NCBI GenBank assembly: GCA_003221005.1
Contig: QHTZ01000067.1
Location: 43,417-107,416, forward strand
Origin: Gemmatimonadota bacterium
GTDB lineage: Bacteria; Gemmatimonadota; Gemmatimonadetes; Gemmatimonadales; GWC2-71-9
DNA: 64,000 nucleotides
Reading direction: 5' to 3'
Translations under genes and position numbers: made by a program
Shown: piece by piece, positions 40,027 through 47,459 of the stretch
How the letters are laid out: each line of letters opens with the position of its first letter
Position numbering within the stretch: position 1 is the stretch's first letter
Notes under the pieces: model-generated
What the model saw: only the letters and a program-made list of their open reading frames with translations
What the model was told of the DNA's origin: nothing
Databases searched by the model: none

Positions 40027-41256
40027 TTACGGGTCGAACCGGTCCAGCTTCCGGTCCCGCCGCCGCGCGAGCCAGTAGAGCGGCACGCCCAGGATCAGCG
40101 TCGCCCCTGAGGCGACCCACGCCTCAGCGATCCCCCGTGTGCGCGCGAGCCATCCCCATCCCGTCTGCCCGGCCACGCCACCCACGTTCGCGAAGAATGA
40201 ATCGAGCGAGATGATCGTGGCTCGCTGCTGCGACGGGATGTGGGCGTTGAGATAGCCCTGCTTCACCGGCATCCCCACGCCGAGTGCCATGCCATAGACG
40301 AGGTACAGCCCCACCACCACGTAGAAGTCCCGCAGCAGGCCGCACAGGACTACCGTGACCACCTGCACGACCACTGACGCGATCAGCATTCCGGTGCGCG
40401 AGCGAACGACGCGCGACAGCGGCACGACAAGCGCATTGCCGGCGATCAGCGTGAGCGACGTGAGCGCGGCGATCACCCCCGACACCCACACCGCCTCCCG
40501 CCCCAGCAGGTCCAGGAAGTAGCGCTGCCAGCTGTAGAAGCCGAAGATCATAAAGCTCATCGAGACGAGCGACCCGAGCATCAGCGGCCGGACCACCGGG
40601 TGGTGCAAGCCGTAGCGCATGCCCTCCACGAACACGCGCCGCATCTCCGCCGGCACGCGCGACAACGCGAGCGCACGCGGGGTGTAGCCGAGCTCGCGCA
40701 TCCCGAACCAGGCCAGCGCGAACAACGGCACCACGATTCCCGCCCGCACGAGGTAGGGCACGGCGAGATCGATCTGACCCAGCAAGCCGCCGGCGAGGGT
40801 ACCGACCAGCATCGCCGCGCCGAACGCCATCTGACCGCGCGCGAACACCGGCTCGAGCGGCGCGGTGTACCCCGTCGCCTTGAGAGCGTCGACCAGCCAT
40901 GCGTCCACCGCGCCGGTGTAGAACGTGTAGCCGAGTCCCAGAAACACCGACACGGCGGCGAACGGCCAGAAGCCCCACCCGAGCCGCGCGATCGCCACGT
41001 AGCAGAGTGTGGTGACGAACAAGGTGGCGAGGCACAACAGCAGCGAAATACGCCGCCCGAGGGTGTCGGCGACGACGCCGGTGGGGATCTCGAACAGGAC
41101 GTTGCCCAGCGTGAACGCGGCATTCGTGAGCATCACCTGGAAGATGTCCAACCCCGCGTGGAGCTTGAACAGCGTGTCGATGCCCCAGATCAGGGACATC
41201 GCCAGGTTGAAGAGCCCGGTGATCAGCAGGTAGACGCGGATGATCTGTGCGCTCAC
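40027..41256 (-). CDS. MFS transporter
   Basis: 'FEIPTGVVADTLGRRISL'; 12-TM pattern; overlaps the stop of the substrate-binding protein gene. Confidence 0.88.
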   Translation of the reverse strand: MSAQIIRVYLLITGLFNLAMSLIWGIDTLFKLHAGLDIFQVMLTNAAFTLGNVLFEIPTGVVADTLGRRISLLLCLATLFVTTLCYVAIARLGWGFWPFAAVSVFLGLGYTFYTGAVDAWLVDALKATGYTAPLEPVFARGQMAFGAAMLVGTLAGGLLGQIDLAVPYLVRAGIVVPLFALAWFGMRELGYTPRALALSRVPAEMRRVFVEGMRYGLHHPVVRPLMLGSLVSMSFMIFGFYSWQRYFLDLLGREAVWVSGVIAALTSLTLIAGNALVVPLSRVVRSRTGMLIASVVVQVVTVVLCGLLRDFYVVVGLYLVYGMALGVGMPVKQGYLNAHIPSQQRATIISLDSFFANVGGVAGQTGWGWLARTRGIAEAWVASGATLILGVPLYWLARRRDRKLDRFDP

Positions 41257-42122
41257 GGAACGTGCGCCTCGAGCCAGTCGTGCGCGATCGCCCGGATGTC
41301 CTGGTGCTGCACGTCGGCCAGCGCATTCAAGCGCCGCATCTCGTCGTCCGAGATCTTGCCGGTCAGCTCGCCGAGCGCGGCCGCCACCTCGGGATGGCGC
41401 CGCAACACCACTTCACGCGCGACGACCGCGGCTTCGTAGGGAGGGAAGTAATGCCGATCGTCTTCCAGGGCGACGAGATCGAGCGCGGCGATCTGACCGT
41501 CCGTCGAGTTGCCGGCGATCATGTCCACCTTTCCGTCGGCGAGCGCGCGGTAGGTGAGTCCCAAGTCCATCGCGGTCGGAGGCGCGCGGAAGGCAAGCCT
41601 GTACACCTGCGACAGCCCGGCGAATCCGTCTGCGCGCTCCAGGAACTCGTAACCGAACCCCGCCTTCCACCGCGGCGCGACGCGCGCCACGTCGGAGATC
41701 CGCGTCAGGCCATATTGCCGCGCTTCCGTCCGGCGGATCAGAATCGCGAACGTGTTGTTGAAGCCGAACGGCGCGAGCCACCGCAGGCCGAAGCGTGCCG
41801 CATAGTCGCGCGCCACGACTCGCGCCACGCTGTCCCGATCGCTCACCGGGGGGTGCTTGAGCACCGCCGTGAACGCGGTGCCCGTGTACTCGGGATAGAG
41901 ATCGATCTGTCCCGCGACGATCGCCTGATGACACACGAACGTGCCACCCAGGTGCAGGCGTCGCTCCACGGGCAGGTGCGCGCGCCGCTCGATCTGCTGC
42001 GCCACGAGCTCGGCGAGCAAGTCGGACTCCGTGAAGTTCTTGGCGCCCACGACGATCCGGTCGTGCCGGGCACACGAACTTGCTGCGGAGAGCGCGAGCA
42101 CCGCGGCGAGCAACGCGAGCAT
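41253..42122 (-). CDS. betaine/QAC-type ABC substrate-binding lipoprotein (OpuC/OsmF/EgtU family)
   Basis: 'VGAKNFTES', 'YPEYTGT', 'GFNNTFA', 'EFLERADG', 'FPPYEA'. Alternative start at 42224. Confidence 0.9.
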   Translation of the reverse strand: MLALLAAVLALSAASSCARHDRIVVGAKNFTESDLLAELVAQQIERRAHLPVERRLHLGGTFVCHQAIVAGQIDLYPEYTGTAFTAVLKHPPVSDRDSVARVVARDYAARFGLRWLAPFGFNNTFAILIRRTEARQYGLTRISDVARVAPRWKAGFGYEFLERADGFAGLSQVYRLAFRAPPTAMDLGLTYRALADGKVDMIAGNSTDGQIAALDLVALEDDRHYFPPYEAAVVAREVVLRRHPEVAAALGELTGKISDDEMRRLNALADVQHQDIRAIAHDWLEAHVP

Positions 42123-42249
42123 GCCGGCCCGGCGTTTCCCGTGCCCTGAAGGGCCGGCTCGGCGTAAACGCGCGTCTTTAAAGACGCGACCTCGGCCGAG
42201 CCGGCGTTTCAACGCACGGACCACACGTGAGGCCAGGTGGGAGTCCTGC

Positions 42250-42879
42250 TCACCTTGCCCGCCACACCAGCCGCCGCTCGAGCAGCGCGAACAGGCCGTC
42301 CGCCGCCAGCGCCATCAGCGCCGCCGGGATCGCGCCCGCGAGGATCAAGGTGTCGTCCACCACCGCCACGCCGCGGAAGACGTAGACGCCGAGCCCGCCC
42401 GCGCCGATCGCGGCGCCGATCGTAGCCACGCCCACGCTCACGACCGTCGCGACGCGCACACCCGCGAGAATGACCGCCGCAGCGAGGGGCAGCTCCACCA
42501 GCCGCAGCAGCTCGGCGTCCGTCATCCCCATGCCGCGACCGGCTTCGCGGATGGCTGGGTCCACGCCCGCGATTCCCGTGTAGGTGTTGCGCACGATGGG
42601 GAGTAGCGCGTACACGATCAGCGCGGTGATCGCCGTCCAGAACCCGATGCCGAAGATCGGAATGAGGATCCCGAAGAGCGCGAGGCTCGGGATCGTCTGG
42701 AACACCCCCGCGAGCCCGAGCACGGGGGGCCGCCACGCGGGTCGGCGGGTGAGCACCACGCCGAGGGGAATCCCCACGAGTGCCGCGGCACCGGTCGAGA
42801 GTACCACCAAGACGAGGTGCTGACCGACGAGACCGAGTGCCTCATGGGCGTTGCGCGCGAAGAACGCTACCAACCTCAT
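42250..42879 (-). CDS. betaine-type ABC permease
   Basis: 'FQTIPSLAL', EAA loop 'REAGRGMGMT', 'GAGGLG'. Confidence 0.92.
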   Translation of the reverse strand: MRLVAFFARNAHEALGLVGQHLVLVVLSTGAAALVGIPLGVVLTRRPAWRPPVLGLAGVFQTIPSLALFGILIPIFGIGFWTAITALIVYALLPIVRNTYTGIAGVDPAIREAGRGMGMTDAELLRLVELPLAAAVILAGVRVATVVSVGVATIGAAIGAGGLGVYVFRGVAVVDDTLILAGAIPAALMALAADGLFALLERRLVWRAR

Positions 42880-43628
42880 GCCGCCTCCAGGAAGCGGCGG
42901 ACCTCGGGGTGCTCGTTGCGACGGAATTCGTCGGGGGTACCGAGGAACAGCAGCCGTCCCGCATGCATCAACCCGATGCGCGTCCCCAGGAGCAGCCCCT
43001 CCCGCACGTCGTGGGTCACGAACACCATGCCCTTTCCCAGCCGCCCCTCGAGGGCGCGGAATTCCTGCTGCAGTTCGAAGCGCGTAATGGGATCGAGTGC
43101 GCCGAACGGCTCGTCCAGGAGCAGCAGCGGCGGGTCGGCAGCGAGCGCGCGCGCCACCCCGACCCGCTGCCGCTGACCGCCCGAGAGCTGGTGCGGATAG
43201 CGTCCACCGAACGCCTCCGGGTCGAGCCCCACGAGCGCGAGCAGCTCGCGCACCCGGGCCGCGATCCGCTCTGGAGGCCAGCGTTCGAGCCGCGGCACGA
43301 GTCCCGCGTTCTCGGCCACCGTGAAATGCGGCAGCAGACCCACCTCCTGAATCACGTAGCCGATCCGCCGCCGCAGCGACGTGGGCTCGAGCGCCGCGGT
43401 CCGCTGCCCCGCCACCAACACCTCCCCCACCGAAGGCTCGAGCAGACGGTTGATGAGCTTAAGTGTGGTCGTCTTCCCAGAGCCGCTGCGGCCGAGGAGC
43501 ACGAGGGTCTCTCCTGCACCCACAGTGAAGGACACGTCCCGGACGATCGGCAGGACCCGTCCCTCCTCCCCCGTCCCTCTTCCCGGCAACGTATAGCCGA
43601 GTCCCCGGACCTCGAGCACGGCGCTCAT
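42876..43628 (-). CDS. betaine-type ABC ATPase
   Basis: Walker A 'GRSGSGKT'; 'LSGGQRQR'; 'LLDEPFGALD'. Confidence 0.93.
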   Translation of the reverse strand: MSAVLEVRGLGYTLPGRGTGEEGRVLPIVRDVSFTVGAGETLVLLGRSGSGKTTTLKLINRLLEPSVGEVLVAGQRTAALEPTSLRRRIGYVIQEVGLLPHFTVAENAGLVPRLERWPPERIAARVRELLALVGLDPEAFGGRYPHQLSGGQRQRVGVARALAADPPLLLLDEPFGALDPITRFELQQEFRALEGRLGKGMVFVTHDVREGLLLGTRIGLMHAGRLLFLGTPDEFRRNEHPEVRRFLEAA

Positions 43629-44578
43629 TGCGCCCCCGCCCCCACCAGCACCATTTGAAAGCGGCCGTCTTCGCTCGTCCCGCGCCAGCGCTGCCCGAGG
43701 CCGGCATCTCGCAGGATTCGCAGGAACGTGTCGGCGTCGTACTTGTACGAGTGGTTCATTTCCAGCCGCTCGCCGGCACCGAGGGTCAGGGACTCTCCGC
43801 CGAGCCGGGCGGCGACGTCGCGGGTCGCCCGGAAGTGCTTGGTGAGGGGATGCAGCCCGGGGACGCGCGCGTCCTCGCGGTCCTCGAACACGAGCTCGCC
43901 GTCGGCCTCGGTGATCCCGACGGCGTGGAGCGGCGCCCACGCGAAGCGCCGGTTCAGGGGGTTGTCATAGCCAGCGACGGTGGCCTGGGCGGCGTAGATC
44001 TCGCCGTCCACGAGGAGCAGGTCGTCCCCGCGGAGCAGTTTCCGCAGGGCCCGCGTCTCGACCAGCGGATCGAATGCGCCGAGGGTGTTGCCCAGGAGCA
44101 AAATCAGGCGCGGCGGCGTTTCGGGATTAGGCGCCAGTGCAGTGAGGTGGTCGGTCCGTGTGAAGTCGGCCTTGACGCCCTGGGCGGGGAGCCCCGCGGC
44201 GACGGCGCCCTGACACGCGAGCTCGAGCAACGCCTGGCTCGTGTCTACGGGCGTGTAGGAGACGCGGATCCCGTGGGGTCGCAGCGCTTCGATGAGAAGC
44301 AGGTCCTTGTCCCCCTGCCCCGAGCCCAGGCTCAGGACCTCGAGCGGGCCGGGGGGTATGTAGCCAGCGAGGTCGGCGGCGGACCGAGCGATGAGCGAGC
44401 GCGACCGCACGTAGTTCCGGTAGGCGCCGTCCGAGCAGAGGGCGAGCCAGGCTCGGACGGACAGCGGAAACCAATAGAAGAATTTCTCCGGGAGCCGACG
44501 CGCGCGAAACGCGGCGACGAACTCGTCGGCGAGCGCGGTCTCGGTAAGTAGCGTGTGAGTGACGATCACGGAGTTCAA
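43625..44578 (-). CDS. EgtD-family (Methyltransf_33) SAM-dependent methyltransferase, divergent
   Basis: 'LPEKFFY', 'SLGSGQGDK', 'YTPVDTS', 'LGNTLG', 'GYDNP', 'GERLEMNHSYKY' are collinear with EgtD motifs. Confidence 0.8.
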   Translation of the reverse strand: MNSVIVTHTLLTETALADEFVAAFRARRLPEKFFYWFPLSVRAWLALCSDGAYRNYVRSRSLIARSAADLAGYIPPGPLEVLSLGSGQGDKDLLLIEALRPHGIRVSYTPVDTSQALLELACQGAVAAGLPAQGVKADFTRTDHLTALAPNPETPPRLILLLGNTLGAFDPLVETRALRKLLRGDDLLLVDGEIYAAQATVAGYDNPLNRRFAWAPLHAVGITEADGELVFEDREDARVPGLHPLTKHFRATRDVAARLGGESLTLGAGERLEMNHSYKYDADTFLRILRDAGLGQRWRGTSEDGRFQMVLVGAGAQ

Positions 44579-44588
44579 GAGTTACCGG

Positions 44589-44617
44589 TTGACGGGTCTG
44601 GCGGCAACCCGTATGCT
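44589..44617 (+). promoter_or_regulatory. sigma70-type promoter of the precursor peptide gene
   Basis: TTGACG-N17-TATGCT, about 50 nt upstream of ATG 44669; GGAGG RBS at 44656-44660. Confidence 0.7.
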
Positions 44618-44668
44618 ACGTTTCGTCTGCCGTCGTCTGATTTCCACGTAAAGACGGAGGATATTCGC

Positions 44669-44761
44669 ATGCAGATCGTCGAGACGCAGGAGCTCGTGCC
44701 CACCTGTCATCGGCCTGAGGTCGTGGAGACGAGCGAGCTGCAGCCAACCTGTCACTCCTGA
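44669..44761 (+). CDS. putative RiPP precursor peptide, 30 aa: MQIVETQELVPTCHRPEVVETSELQPTCHS
   Basis: Strong RBS and promoter; two 15-aa-period repeats (I/V)VETxELxPTCH; lies immediately upstream of the AKR-RRE, MNIO and partner genes. Confidence 0.85.
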   Translation: MQIVETQELVPTCHRPEVVETSELQPTCHS

Positions 44762-44775
44762 CGCAGGGCGGCTGG

Positions 44776-45900
44776 ATGCAAGAGGGGGCCCGGACCGATT
44801 TCGGGCCCCTTTCGCGTTTCCTGGGCACGGAGGCGCGACTGGGGTTCGGGGGCTGGGCGGTGGGCGGCGCGGGCTGGGGGACGCCAGACGACACGCACGA
44901 GCGCGAGGCCGCGATCCGGCGCGCCGTCGAGCGGGGCGTCACGTTCTTCGACACCGCGCCGACGTACGGTGACGGCGAGTCCGAGCGACTGCTGGGCCGC
45001 GCGCTCGGAACCGTGCGCGAGCGGGTGGCGATCGCCACCAAGGTCGGCCCGCGCGACGATCCACGCGCCTCACTCGAAGCGTCGCTGCGCCGCCTCACCA
45101 CGGACTGCGTGGACCTGGTGCAGCTGCACGAAGCGCTCGAACGGTGGGAATGGCAACTCGAAGCGCTCTATCGGCTGCAGCTCGAGGGAAAGGCCCTCGC
45201 GATCGGGCTCTGCAACGCCACTCACCTGCAGGTCGCGCGGGCGCTGACCATCGCTCCCCTGGCGACGTATCAGGGCACCTACAACCTGTTCGATCGCGAC
45301 GTAGAAGAGCGCGAGCTGCCACTGTGCCGCGAACGTGGCCTCGCGTTCCTGGCATTCCGGCCGCTCGCCGCAGGCCTGCTCACCGGCAAGTACCGGGAGC
45401 CTCCCGCCTTCCCGGACGATGACCACCGCCGCAAGGTCTATTGGTTCAAGGGGAAGGAGTTCGAGCGCCGCCAGCGGACGATCGAGCGGCTGCGGCGCGT
45501 TGCGCGCCGGGAGGGCGTGTCGCTGCTCGAGCTCGCCCTGGGGTGGCTGCGCGCGCGGCCGGGGGTGAACATGGTCCTGGTGGGCGCGAGAAACCGGTCG
45601 CAGGTCGAGGAGGCGTTCGTCCCGGGCGTCGGGCCGCTGACAGCGGACACGGTGAACGAGATCGACCTCATAGTCCGCGAGGTCTTCCGCCCGGGCCGCG
45701 GCACGGCGCAACTCGAGCGGGCGGCCGCGACGTGGGGAGAGCGCGAGCGCTTCATCGCGGCGCGGCTCGACGGGAAGACTCGCTACGAAGCGATCGCCGC
45801 CGAGTGGACCGACCGCGGCGAACAGCCGATGATCGCGGCGCAGATCAAGGTGTTCGTGGACCAGTTGGCTGAGCAACGGTTGGTTGACGCCGACGGCTGA
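44776..45900 (+). CDS. aldo/keto reductase with a C-terminal PqqD/RRE-like extension
   Basis: 'LGFGGWAVGG', 'FFDTAPTYG', 'IATKVG', 'DLVQLH', 'PLAAGLLTGKY'. Tail 'FIAARLDGKTRYEAIAAEW...IKVFVDQLAEQRLV'. Confidence 0.88.
   Translation: MQEGARTDFGPLSRFLGTEARLGFGGWAVGGAGWGTPDDTHEREAAIRRAVERGVTFFDTAPTYGDGESERLLGRALGTVRERVAIATKVGPRDDPRASLEASLRRLTTDCVDLVQLHEALERWEWQLEALYRLQLEGKALAIGLCNATHLQVARALTIAPLATYQGTYNLFDRDVEERELPLCRERGLAFLAFRPLAAGLLTGKYREPPAFPDDDHRRKVYWFKGKEFERRQRTIERLRRVARREGVSLLELALGWLRARPGVNMVLVGARNRSQVEEAFVPGVGPLTADTVNEIDLIVREVFRPGRGTAQLERAAATWGERERFIAARLDGKTRYEAIAAEWTDRGEQPMIAAQIKVFVDQLAEQRLVDADG
44782..44812 (+). terminator. stem-loop just downstream of the precursor gene (attenuator or mRNA stabiliser)
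   Basis: gagggggcccgga-ccgat-ttcgggccccttt: 13 bp including G-U pairs, followed by a weak U tract. Confidence 0.45.
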
Positions 45901-45906
45901 CCGCTG

Positions 45907-46692
45907 ATGGCTCTCATGGTCGGGGCGTTCTACAACCCTCAGCTCGGCGCTGAGCTCGCTGCGGCGAAGGGCATCGACCACCTCGCCATGGCCGACCCGC
46001 CGGCAGCACACGATGCGCACTGGCCCACCATCCGCGAGCGCTACACGCTGCTGCTCCACGACTACCTCGGCCAGCTCTCCGAGCCGCTCGATGAACGCTC
46101 GATCGAGCGTGCCCGCTCCCTCGCTACGTTGTACCGCACACCGTGGATCGCCGAGCATTTCCAGTGCCTGCACACGGAAGACGGGCGCTACAACATCAAC
46201 TACGTGTTCCCGCCGCTCTACACCGACGAGTTTCTGGAGCGTTTCGTCGCCAACGCACGCGCGCTCCAGGCGCGGCTCGAGCAGCCGCTCGTGATGGAGA
46301 ACATCCCCGGCTTCTTCGACGTCAAGGCGAGCCAGCTCCCGGAGCCTGTCTGGCTCGCGCGTTTCTTCGACGCGACCGAGGTCGGCTTTCTGCTCGACCT
46401 GCCGCACGTTTGGCTCGAGGCCCACTACCGCGGCATGAAGCCTGAAGCGTGGCTCGCGCAATTCCCGCTCGAGCACGTAGTCGAGCTGCACGTGGCCGGC
46501 GTCGAGGAGGACGAGGACCTGCGAGGTCCCTGGATCGCGCCCACCGCCCCGTCGGAGGCCATGCTCGCGTTTCTGGCGCACGCCGTCACTCGCTGTCCCC
46601 GGGCCAAGGCTGTCACGTTCGACGCATTTTCGCCGTCGCTCACCGCCGACGTGCTGTTCCGGAGCGTTGAACGGATCCGGGGGGCGCTGTGA
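45907..46692 (+). CDS. DUF692 / multinuclear non-heme iron oxidative enzyme (MNIO)
   Basis: 'WIAEHF', 'PPLYTDEFLERFVANARALQARLEQPLVMENI', 'FLLDLPH', 'VVELHVAG'. Confidence 0.85.
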   Translation: MALMVGAFYNPQLGAELAAAKGIDHLAMADPPAAHDAHWPTIRERYTLLLHDYLGQLSEPLDERSIERARSLATLYRTPWIAEHFQCLHTEDGRYNINYVFPPLYTDEFLERFVANARALQARLEQPLVMENIPGFFDVKASQLPEPVWLARFFDATEVGFLLDLPHVWLEAHYRGMKPEAWLAQFPLEHVVELHVAGVEEDEDLRGPWIAPTAPSEAMLAFLAHAVTRCPRAKAVTFDAFSPSLTADVLFRSVERIRGAL

Positions 46693-47459
46693 CCGACCGG
46701 GCACTCCAGGACCTGGTGCTGCGCGCGCTGGCCGACGCCTCGTTCCGGGCGTCATCCGCCTGGCGGCAGCGTGCGCTCGCGGACCCCGCGAAGGTGGAGC
46801 GGTTCGCACGCTTCCTCGCGCGGCACTTCTACTACGAGCGGATCGTGCACTTCTTCAAGTACTCGGGGGCGCTGGCGCGTGTGACCGGCCGGCGACCAGA
46901 GGGGACGCTCCGCGGTGCCGAATTCGAAGCGCTGCTCCCCGTGGTCGTACTCGGCAGTCGGCAGACGGCTCGCGCGGTCGCCGATCTCGTCGTGCGCGAA
47001 GTGAAGGGCGGCGCCCCCGTGGCCTCGATCCCATATCGCGACGACTTGCTGCGCTACGAGGCGGCGATGATGGTCGCGGAGGCGGGGCCGAGGGTGTGGC
47101 GAGAGAACGGGAAGGGGGAAGAGGGAAGAGGAACGGGTGTCCCGGAAACCGCTGAAGGAACAGTGCTGCTGGATCTCGCCTACGACCTACCGGCGGTCCT
47201 GCCGCAGCTGCTCCAGCCGTGGACCGAGGTGCCGCAGGCGCCGCCGCGACCGGTGCGACTCCTCGTCGCGCGCTCGCCCCGCGGCCGGGTCGCGGTCGCT
47301 CGCACCGACAGCGCGGTGGCGCGCGTGGTCGAGCTCGCGGACGGCCGCCGCACCCTCGAAGAGCTCGCACGCGCGGCCGGGTTGCCGCGGAACGAGCTCG
47401 AGGCCACGCTCGCCGGGCTCACCGACCTCGGCGCCGTTCGCTTCGGGACGGGCAGCTGA
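46689..47459 (+). CDS. MNIO partner protein (DUF2063/HvfC-like N-terminus, RRE/wHTH C-terminus)
   Basis: 'DLLRYEAA'; C-terminal 'VVELADGRRTLEELARAAG...LAGLTDLGAV'. GTGA overlap with the MNIO gene. Confidence 0.7.
   Translation: MTDRALQDLVLRALADASFRASSAWRQRALADPAKVERFARFLARHFYYERIVHFFKYSGALARVTGRRPEGTLRGAEFEALLPVVVLGSRQTARAVADLVVREVKGGAPVASIPYRDDLLRYEAAMMVAEAGPRVWRENGKGEEGRGTGVPETAEGTVLLDLAYDLPAVLPQLLQPWTEVPQAPPRPVRLLVARSPRGRVAVARTDSAVARVVELADGRRTLEELARAAGLPRNELEATLAGLTDLGAVRFGTGS

Follow-up and report, generated by a model that had tools for sequence, protein, structure and literature searches.

A putative leaderless, multi-core RiPP precursor encoded beside a multinuclear iron oxidase and an EgtD-like methyltransferase in Gemmatimonadales

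A 30-amino-acid open reading frame (ORF) at positions 44669-44761 of a 64,000-nt stretch of DNA from a Gemmatimonadota bacterium (contig QHTZ01000067.1; the whole stretch is called the window below) very probably encodes the translated, leaderless, multi-core precursor of a ribosomally synthesised peptide that undergoes post-translational modification (RiPP). This peptide is likely to be the substrate of two enzymes encoded next to it, a multinuclear iron oxidase (MNIO, DUF692) and an EgtD-like methyltransferase that we call MT33. MNIOs are yielding a rapidly increasing range of unusual peptide chemistry, and no substrate has been assigned to the majority of their minor clades. For the present clade, the ORF provides a candidate substrate with strong comparative support, made of 2 to 4 self-contained units, each with a putative recognition half and a core ending in Cys-His. 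The parent genome of the window is 2.79 Mb long and 94% complete. The gene and its signals are the following.

44669-44761, + strand: precursor peptide gene, 30 aa; ATG at 44669, stop (TGA) at 44759-44761; translation MQIVETQELVPTCHRPEVVETSELQPTCHS
44675-44710, + strand: unit 1, residues 3-14 of the precursor peptide
44720-44755, + strand: unit 2, residues 18-29 of the precursor peptide
44656-44660, + strand: ribosome-binding site (RBS) GGAGG
44589-44617, + strand: sigma-70-like promoter TTGACG-N17-TATGCT of the peptide gene, from a pattern scan and from relatives
44782-44812, + strand: predicted GC-rich hairpin of 13 pairs with a 5-nt loop, followed by TTTCGCGTTT; it starts 21 nt past the peptide stop and lies within the initial codons of the aldo/keto reductase (AKR) gene

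Within the peptide, the two units IVETQELVPTCH and VVETSELQPTCH follow each other at a 15-residue offset. An earlier interpretation made without database searches, the sequence-only reading, had singled out this tandem spacing from the pairs E5/E20, C13/C28 and H14/H29; the translation bears it out, and the two units do differ by the synonymous codons that had been listed (gtc/gtg, ctc/ctg, ccc/cca, cat/cac). The GGAGG motif 8 nt upstream of the ATG and the promoter were also found where that reading had placed them, the latter being the sole promoter-like site in 44300-45100 (mean of 0.1 in shuffled sequence). In the ORF list, as it had likewise remarked, this region appears only at the end of an ORF of 68 aa; the latter starts with GTG and spans 44555-44761. 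The N-terminus of the peptide, MQIVETQEL, is without a hydrophobic segment. The motif P[TS]CH occurs 29 times in the six frames of the whole genome, and a pair of them 6-14 residues apart just once, in this ORF, versus about 0.0014 expected.

Codon entropy was compared on 60 distinct rows of 213 nt from two-unit loci. Mean column entropies were:

Codon position 1: 0.18 bits
Codon position 2: 0.17 bits
Codon position 3: 0.52 bits
Upstream flank: 1.77 bits
Downstream flank: 1.36 bits

In these 60 rows the ATG is invariant, and the stop keeps its position while being TAA (17 rows), TGA (40) or TAG (3). Among 73 distinct upstream regions, 71 have GGAGG and the remaining 2 GAGG, and TTGACG-N17/18-TAnnnT is located 41-51 nt 5′ of the ATG in 56. 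Three-base periodicity, an invariant ATG, an alternating stop and a conserved RBS are signatures of a translated gene. Judged from these alignments, the 30-aa ORF is a real gene under protein-level selection. That it is an ORF arisen by chance, or a conserved element without coding function, has next to no probability: many spurious ORFs are found in high-GC genomes, and third codon positions are fairly conserved here too, but such an origin does not fit the signatures just listed, the synonymous differences between the units, or a repeat number that changes in whole units. Third positions are nonetheless far less variable (0.52 bits) than the flanks (1.4-1.8 bits), with CCC, AGC, CAT and CGT nearly fixed, and an additional constraint may act on the mRNA of the peptide gene. 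As a separate observation, an inverted repeat, ACGGGT/ACCCGT (44592-44597 and 44607-44612), fills the promoter spacer, its longer form GGTTGAC/GGCAACC spanning 44587-44612, and is present in the upstream regions of relatives as well; it may serve as an operator within the 90 nt that the peptide gene and the divergent methyltransferase gene have in common upstream.

Homologous loci were collected with the MNIO protein as the only seed and one genome per species; of 162 pattern matches, 110 encode a relative, and the analysis retained the best 80. They are mostly from Gemmatimonadales, with 4 from Gemmatimonadaceae, 2 from Actinomycetota and 7 from Terriglobales/Acidobacteriales. An ORF with at least two P[TS]CH motifs spaced by 36-48 nt (12-16 aa) lies just upstream of the MNIO gene, and on its strand, in 74 of the 80. 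Conservation of the small ORF beside homologous enzymes, on which the sequence-only reading had made its proposal depend, was thus found, and across three phyla. The 6 loci devoid of the ORF have just 445-1,712 nt upstream of the MNIO gene; this is too short in four of them (L001, L041, L047, L064) and maybe too short in L050 (1,143 nt). The repeat numbers, compared across the loci as had been suggested, range from 2 to 4, as expected for a multi-core substrate:

Gemmatimonadales: 2 units per peptide
Actinomycetota: 3 units per peptide
Terriglobales: 3 units per peptide
Gemmatimonadaceae: 4 units per peptide

Successive units are separated by 15 aa in 74 pairs, 16 aa in 12, 12 aa in 2 and 14 aa in 1, the shortest unit being 12 residues long (e.g. 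VVEADTLEPTCH in L067). The peptide ends exactly at Cys-His in the 7 Terriglobales loci and carries one extra residue elsewhere; the position after the C-terminal CH is occupied by S, T, A, V, R, I, L or nothing. Both halves of the unit are conserved, namely hydrophobic-hydrophobic-E-x-x-E-L and P-T/S-C-H. At positions outside the pattern used for extraction, the 58 distinct units have Pro at -3 (57 units), Glu at -6 (51), an acidic residue at -9 (58), and a hydrophobic residue at -5, -10 and -11 (58). We infer that each unit of 12-16 residues consists of an acidic, strand-like recognition half (hydrophobic-hydrophobic-E-T/A-x-E-L) and a core, P-T/S-C-H, this assignment of the two halves being a matter of interpretation. 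The unit numbers and the conservation of both halves support the earlier proposal of a multi-core precursor with neither a signal peptide nor a long leader.

The genes surrounding the peptide gene in the window are listed below.

44776-45900, + strand: AKR, a putative accessory tailoring enzyme (PF00248, 1.2e-59)
45907-46692, + strand: MNIO (DUF692) oxidase (PF05114, 94.3 bits versus a cut-off of 25)
46689-47459, + strand: MNIO partner, 256 aa, TglI/NGO1945-like, with a C-terminal domain resembling a winged helix or RiPP recognition element; its start overlaps the MNIO stop by 4 nt
43625-44578, - strand: MT33, a divergent EgtD-like methyltransferase using S-adenosylmethionine (SAM), start codon uncertain (PF10017, 4e-24, 85.6 bits versus a cut-off of 23)
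42876-43628, - strand: ATPase of an ATP-binding cassette (ABC) transporter; its ATG overlaps the MT33 stop as ATGA (43625-43628)
42250-42879, - strand: ABC permease (PF00528)
41253-42224, - strand: OpuAC-type binding protein for quaternary amines (PF04069, 5.7e-60)
40027-41256, - strand: transporter of the major facilitator superfamily (MFS_1/MFS_3), last gene of the MT33 operon, found in 37 of the 80 loci

The peptide, AKR, MNIO and partner genes are tightly packed on the + strand. MT33 is found in divergent orientation within 1 kb of the peptide in 68 of the 69 MNIO-seeded peptide loci having at least 1,200 nt upstream. The AKR is encoded in 66 of the 80 loci and is absent from Terriglobales as well as from L012 and L046; it is therefore dispensable. 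Loci of Terriglobales and Actinomycetota, which lack the AKR or the transporters, keep the linkage to MT33; the conserved core therefore consists of MT33, peptide, MNIO and partner. The sequence-only reading had mentioned neither this general linkage to an EgtD-like methyltransferase nor the dispensable AKR, the hairpin behind the stop, or the orphan copies described below. ABC and MFS genes are found only in Gemmatimonadota loci, and in L002 and L007 they are relocated within the neighbourhood. In Terriglobales, the neighbours beyond the four core genes are unrelated and variable. The ATGA overlap points to a translational coupling of the methyltransferase with a betaine-type ABC transporter. 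Compared to solved structures, its binding protein is closest to the iAChSnFR/iNicSnFR sensor scaffolds (E down to 3.9e-57); the next relatives are binders of choline, carnitine or betaine, including OpuCC/OpuBC (about 1e-50), and the ergothioneine binder EgtUC (2e-47). Some operons hold extra genes (L016:6438-7979, L048:4825-5976, L057:6783-7730 and L050:1761-2873): one type, for an LssY_C protein, separates MNIO from partner, another, for an S33-like alpha/beta hydrolase, separates AKR from MNIO, and a third encodes a beta-propeller of the Vgb-lyase/NHL-like kind; the inserted S33-like hydrolase could be a processing peptidase. The ORF 40124-41326 (- strand) had been considered as a conserved unknown protein and was rejected, as it looks like an off-frame read over the MFS gene. 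It is Arg/Ala-rich and has 43-61% tblastn matches in relatives, as off-frame ORFs of high-GC genomes can look conserved.

With a PF05114 match above its cut-off, an adjoining partner gene and a small precursor with a Cys motif, the locus shows three of the features by which MNIO-dependent RiPP systems are recognised. The MNIO has invariant His/Asp/Glu columns across 36 sequences. Its scores with named models are all below their cut-offs:

ApyH (NF050151), the best named model: 105.2 bits, cut-off 400
BufB (NF050167): 86.3 bits, cut-off 310
HvfB (NF003818): 51.5 bits, cut-off 360

By these scores, the MNIO matches no named equivalog. Sequence signals for the partner are faint (NGO1945_C at 1.4e-3; ApyI at 7e-6, with a score far below the cut-off of 200), and its sequence retrieved nothing significant among solved structures. 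The AlphaFold model has a predicted local distance difference test score (pLDDT) of 91.5, and its top Foldseek matches are 8hi7_A (1.1e-5), 8hci_A (3.3e-5) and 3dee (1.7e-4). The first two are TglHI entries, whose chain A we take to be the partner TglI, and 3dee is NGO1945, the classic MNIO partner. The modelled fold thus predicts that the 46689-47459 product is a DUF2063/TglI/NGO1945-type partner with a peptide-binding domain.

MT33 is the only PF10017 gene in the genome of the window. It scores 61.6 bits with the EgtD model TIGR03438 (cut-off 290.9), versus 316.6 bits for the true EgtD of a congeneric genome, G034; on this basis MT33 is not an EgtD but a member of the Methyltransf_33 superfamily. 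The accessible part of PMC8593015 gives Y56, N166, Y206, E282 and S284 (M. tuberculosis numbering) as the substrate-binding residues of EgtD, with Y56, Y206 and S284 binding the carboxylate and N166 acting as ligand of the alpha-amine. When MT33 is aligned by profile to the M. tuberculosis enzyme, its invariant Y53, Y204 and S277 fall opposite Y56, Y206 and S284, N166 is replaced by Ala, and E282 by Ser or Asn. Since the carboxylate triad is kept and the amine ligand lost, MT33 would bind a His-like residue with a free carboxylate, and place another group at the methyl-transfer site. This residue pattern appears to fit either a released product or a His at the very C-terminus, such as the Terriglobales peptides have.

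We propose that the partner protein binds the acidic recognition half of each unit and presents the Cys-His core to the MNIO, for an O2-dependent oxidation anchored on the Cys thiolate. By analogy, the Cys may itself be the target, which is the case for most MNIOs, or it may anchor the iron while the neighbouring residue reacts. For its conversion into a thio-heterocycle or a thioamide, we estimate a chance slightly below even; its use as an iron anchor, with oxidation of the neighbouring His or of the backbone as in ApyH, is rather unlikely, and so, to a similar degree, is a sulfur chemistry from Cys to His. The AKR, where present, would reduce the carbonyl formed at this step, and MT33 would methylate the His-containing product with its free carboxylate. 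The hairpin, together with the extra orphan copies described below, would raise the precursor supply over that of the enzymes. In Gemmatimonadales, the MFS exporter and the quaternary-amine-type ABC importer, co-transcribed with MT33, would traffic the product.

Another possible product is a small molecule. In that case the peptide would be a sacrificial scaffold, the MNIO turning each Cys-His unit into a sulfur-imidazole compound (thiohistidine, ergothioneine-like, or another betaine), which would be released, N-methylated by MT33, and moved by the MFS and the OpuC/EgtU-type ABC transporters. We regard this variant of the precursor reading, which departs from it in the kind of product, as a minority possibility. 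A specific form of it, of comparably low probability, is a ribosomal alternative to EgtB/EgtD, in which the MNIO would couple the sulfur of the Cys to the imidazole of the adjacent His, or transfer it there, to give 2-4 molecules of an ergothioneine-like thiohistidine betaine per peptide. The distribution of ergothioneine enzymes speaks in its favour. The genome of the window has one PF10017 gene, one MNIO and no EgtB. In a sample of 401 genomes of the family, distinct from the phylum sample of the same size used below, EgtB was found above cut-off in 0 of 53 peptide carriers versus 104 of 348 other genomes, and six carriers have weak matches (about 80 bits) to part of the EgtB model only. The Fisher test gives p = 4e-8 for this exclusion, a value that is overstated because kin are not independent. 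Examples at the genus level are:

g40: peptide 6/6, EgtB 0/6
g149: peptide 3/3, EgtB 0/3
g4: peptide 0/17, EgtB matches 17/17
g6: peptide 0/5, EgtB 5/5

The contrast also holds inside genera. In that of the window, EgtB without the peptide is seen in four genomes (G034, G139, G503, G524) and the peptide without EgtB in G000; in g3, the peptide occurs in G598 and EgtB in G627, an unpublished genome. These tallies include the unpublished genomes G182, G457, G627, G057 and G523. G034 carries a canonical egtD-egtB pair (316.6 and 582 bits; L184, G034:C11, 9331-11677) and is without the peptide cluster, and its EgtB locus has no synteny with the window. EgtB was above cut-off in none of 10 carriers from Actinomycetota, Gemmatimonadaceae and Terriglobales, so that cluster and EgtB were found together in 0 of the 63 carrier genomes examined. 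A canonical EgtD was found in 0 of 5 carriers, which have only the MT33 of the cluster. The scaffold is also favoured by the conserved carboxylate triad of MT33 and by its translational coupling to ABC genes, the binding protein of which falls in the quaternary-amine/EgtUC group.

Several points speak against the scaffold. A His inside the peptide has no free alpha-amine, the amine ligand N166 of EgtD is Ala in MT33, neither a peptidase nor a C-S lyase is conserved in the cluster, and transporter genes are absent from Terriglobales and Actinomycetota loci. A thiohistidine product would not require that Pro and Thr/Ser be strictly conserved ahead of Cys-His. The exclusion itself could be a clade effect, and the g3 contrast depends on an unpublished genome. 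We conclude that the exclusion pattern could reflect either a functional overlap of the cluster with ergothioneine synthesis or a clade effect. If the overlap is true, a ribosomal peptide would give rise to a thiol-histidine-type protectant or metal binder.

The reading of the ORF as a precursor modified by the MNIO and MT33 has points against it. One locus, L042, has no motif in 1,712 nt upstream of its MNIO, next to a truncated AKR, and may be a true absence; L080 is the exception among the 69 loci mentioned above, as it has no MT33. The peptides were extracted by a P/A-T/S-C-H pattern, and the invariance of T/S-C-H is thus partly circular; non-circular support comes from the choice of loci by MNIO only, from profile searches and from DNA searches. 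Across the family, no peptidase is conserved in the core cluster. ApyH, the nearest named MNIO, oxidises a C-terminal Asp and leaves an essential nearby Cys unmodified (PMC10635010, in the part available), which means that modification of the Cys is not assured here. Contigs from metatranscriptomes reach a word depth of 66-69 at the start of the ORF versus 2-3 on MT33. This cover comes from contigs of relatives with 5-7 mismatches rather than raw reads, in 2 runs of a study shared with the best DNA match; stretches devoid of such cover carry no information. DNA runs also peak at the same conserved spot at the ORF start, and we take the RNA of these relatives as a weak hint of transcription of the peptide gene. 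Finally, a search of metagenome contigs seeded by the peptide alone gave 324 relatives, of which 80 were kept: MT33 is present in 41 of the 65 loci with enough upstream flank and absent from 24, and the MNIO is present in 24 of the 38 with enough downstream flank and absent from 14. The peptide can therefore sit away from the enzymes.

These remaining peptide-seeded loci are stand-alone cassettes of RBS, ORF and hairpin among unrelated housekeeping genes, bracketed by a direct repeat that contains GCATTATAGC, the two copies being about 254 nt apart. Neither the window nor any of the 80 MNIO-seeded loci contains this repeat. The arrangement resembles a small cassette, duplicated or mobile, or else two paired regulatory sites; examples far from any MNIO are L150:3905-4195, at least 20 other metagenome loci among L083-L162, and G511:C66:14355-14645. 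Three genomes (G511, G402, G456) have two peptide copies each, with an MNIO beside one. The second copy matches the repeat-flanked cassette nearly over its full length in G511 and G402, and over the ORF-hairpin part only in G456. In G427, an 86%-complete assembly, an unlinked copy is the only one found. Hence, 3 of the 4 genomes with an orphan copy also hold a cluster-linked one. Extra precursor genes acting in trans fit a RiPP substrate and argue against a purely cis-regulatory leader.

Orphan copies bear on the idea that the peptide is translated but works unmodified, for instance as a Cys-His metal binder, with the MNIO acting on another substrate. Cys-His pairs do bind metals, and copies away from the enzymes do exist; we nevertheless consider it improbable, given the near-universal linkage to MNIO, partner and MT33 in MNIO-seeded loci, the presence of the cluster in three of the four orphan-bearing genomes, and an acidic strand-like half-unit for which no part in metal binding is apparent.

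Each of the 73 distinct downstream segments has a stem-loop after the stop, unrelated in sequence in other phyla; 41 of the 73 have z < -2 relative to shuffles. Since its T-run is interrupted, we call the hairpin at 44782-44812 an attenuator or mRNA stabiliser rather than a proven terminator, and a strict terminator scan did not call it. Hairpins that keep the precursor in excess are common in RiPP operons. The occurrence of a hairpin in all lineages, behind a short ORF placed directly upstream of an operon, could suggest a regulatory leader peptide, where translation of the Cys and His codons and the hairpin would attenuate the AKR-MNIO-partner operon. We find this highly improbable. In attenuator leaders, the conserved elements are runs of the sensed codons and not entire units of 12 residues; here, conservation over three phyla extends to E, E, L, P, T/S, C and H, in a unit repeated 2-4 times. 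In addition, orphan copies retain the ORF and hairpin with no operon behind, and MNIO-partner pairs need a peptide substrate, for which no other candidate was seen in the cluster. In L012 and L046, the two Gemmatimonadales loci devoid of AKR, the first AKR codons and the hairpin are still there after the peptide stop; it seems that the hairpin is retained in its own right.

Among known systems, the aminopyruvatide pathway ApyA/ApyH/ApyI is close in several respects: ApyH is the best named MNIO model and ApyI the sole named partner model to match. ApyA is also a precursor without signal peptide and has a conserved Cys near the modified C-terminal residue (PMC10635010, same part). In contrast to it, scores here are far below cut-offs, there is no C-terminal Asp, no P450 and no B12-dependent radical SAM enzyme, the precursor consists of tandem units, and the linked enzyme in place of ApyS is an EgtD-like methyltransferase. 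Bufferins and oxazolins (BufA/BufB; EGKCG repeats with HvfB/HvfC) share an MNIO and a partner acting on Cys, and oxazolin precursors bear many repeated Cys motifs (PMC12452194, accessible part). They differ by their Sec signal peptides, DUF2063-type partners and common DoxX genes, as no signal peptide is found here, the motif is P-T/S-C-H and not EGKCG, and BufB and HvfB scores are under their cut-offs. The methanobactin system (MbnA/MbnB/MbnC) likewise has a small Cys-containing precursor modified by an MNIO-partner pair, but with a single core behind a leader instead of tandem units; the partner has no match to the MbnC model, and no TonB-dependent receptor was seen in the cluster. Methanobactin and metallophore loci have export and import genes nearby, as do the Gemmatimonadales loci. 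With the ergothioneine enzymes EgtD/EgtB, the cluster has in common a PF10017 methyltransferase with the carboxylate-binding residues, an O2-dependent iron enzyme, and Cys plus His as building blocks; here, an MNIO replaces the DinB/FGE-type sulfoxide synthase, and Cys and His are adjacent in a ribosomal peptide. Finally, the predicted fold of the partner is closest to chain A of TglHI, from the pearlin/3-thiaglutamate system (TglA/TglH/TglI), and TglH is one of the two solved MNIOs found by MNIO sequence search. Pearlin uses a peptide scaffold for a small product (PMC9016710, accessible part). It differs in that no tRNA-dependent enzyme adding Cys was seen here, the Cys being encoded and internal, and in that the present peptides have several units.

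No description of this system was found in the literature searched (MNIO with AKR, Gemmatimonad, EgtD/PF10017 or thiohistidine); supplements of surveys, which were not covered, might list the clade unnamed. The accessible part of the MNIO landscape paper (PMC12452194) makes no mention of Gemmatimonadota, histidine or methyltransferase. We found no paper linking fungal UstM/PhomM to EgtD/EasF, and claim no fungal RiPP precedent for PF10017. The link of a histidine-methyltransferase-like enzyme to a RiPP cluster did not appear in the literature searched, and the system would be a family of MNIO RiPPs in which both the design of the precursor and an enzyme partner are new.

As to distribution, 20 genomes of the phylum sample (401 genomes) have an MNIO orthologue, and all 20 also match the 93-nt ORF; one further genome, G042, has the ORF followed by an AKR at a contig end. 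The system is patchy, present in 7 of the 147 genera of this sample and fixed in g9 (11/11) and g16 (3/3); in the genus of the window, the two other sampled genomes gave no match. We conclude that it is common in uncultured soil Gemmatimonadales, and present also in Terriglobales and Actinomycetota. The peptide gene is almost never annotated, as gene callers miss or mis-extend such genes: a word-based search gave 13 relatives of the peptide, each unnamed or called "hypothetical protein", and no NCBIfam model matches it. A profile of 22 peptides had 38 matches at E ≤ 1e-3 among 1.84 billion representative proteins. At least 3 of these look like unrelated long repetitive proteins, P0038 as judged by its sequence, P0016 and P0042 by their length and many short matched stretches only. 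Most of the others appear to be longer mis-called ORFs with the peptide at their end, as seen in 9 of the 11 that were fetched. Variants among the profile matches include a peptide with three 12-residue units and the motif P-N-C-H.

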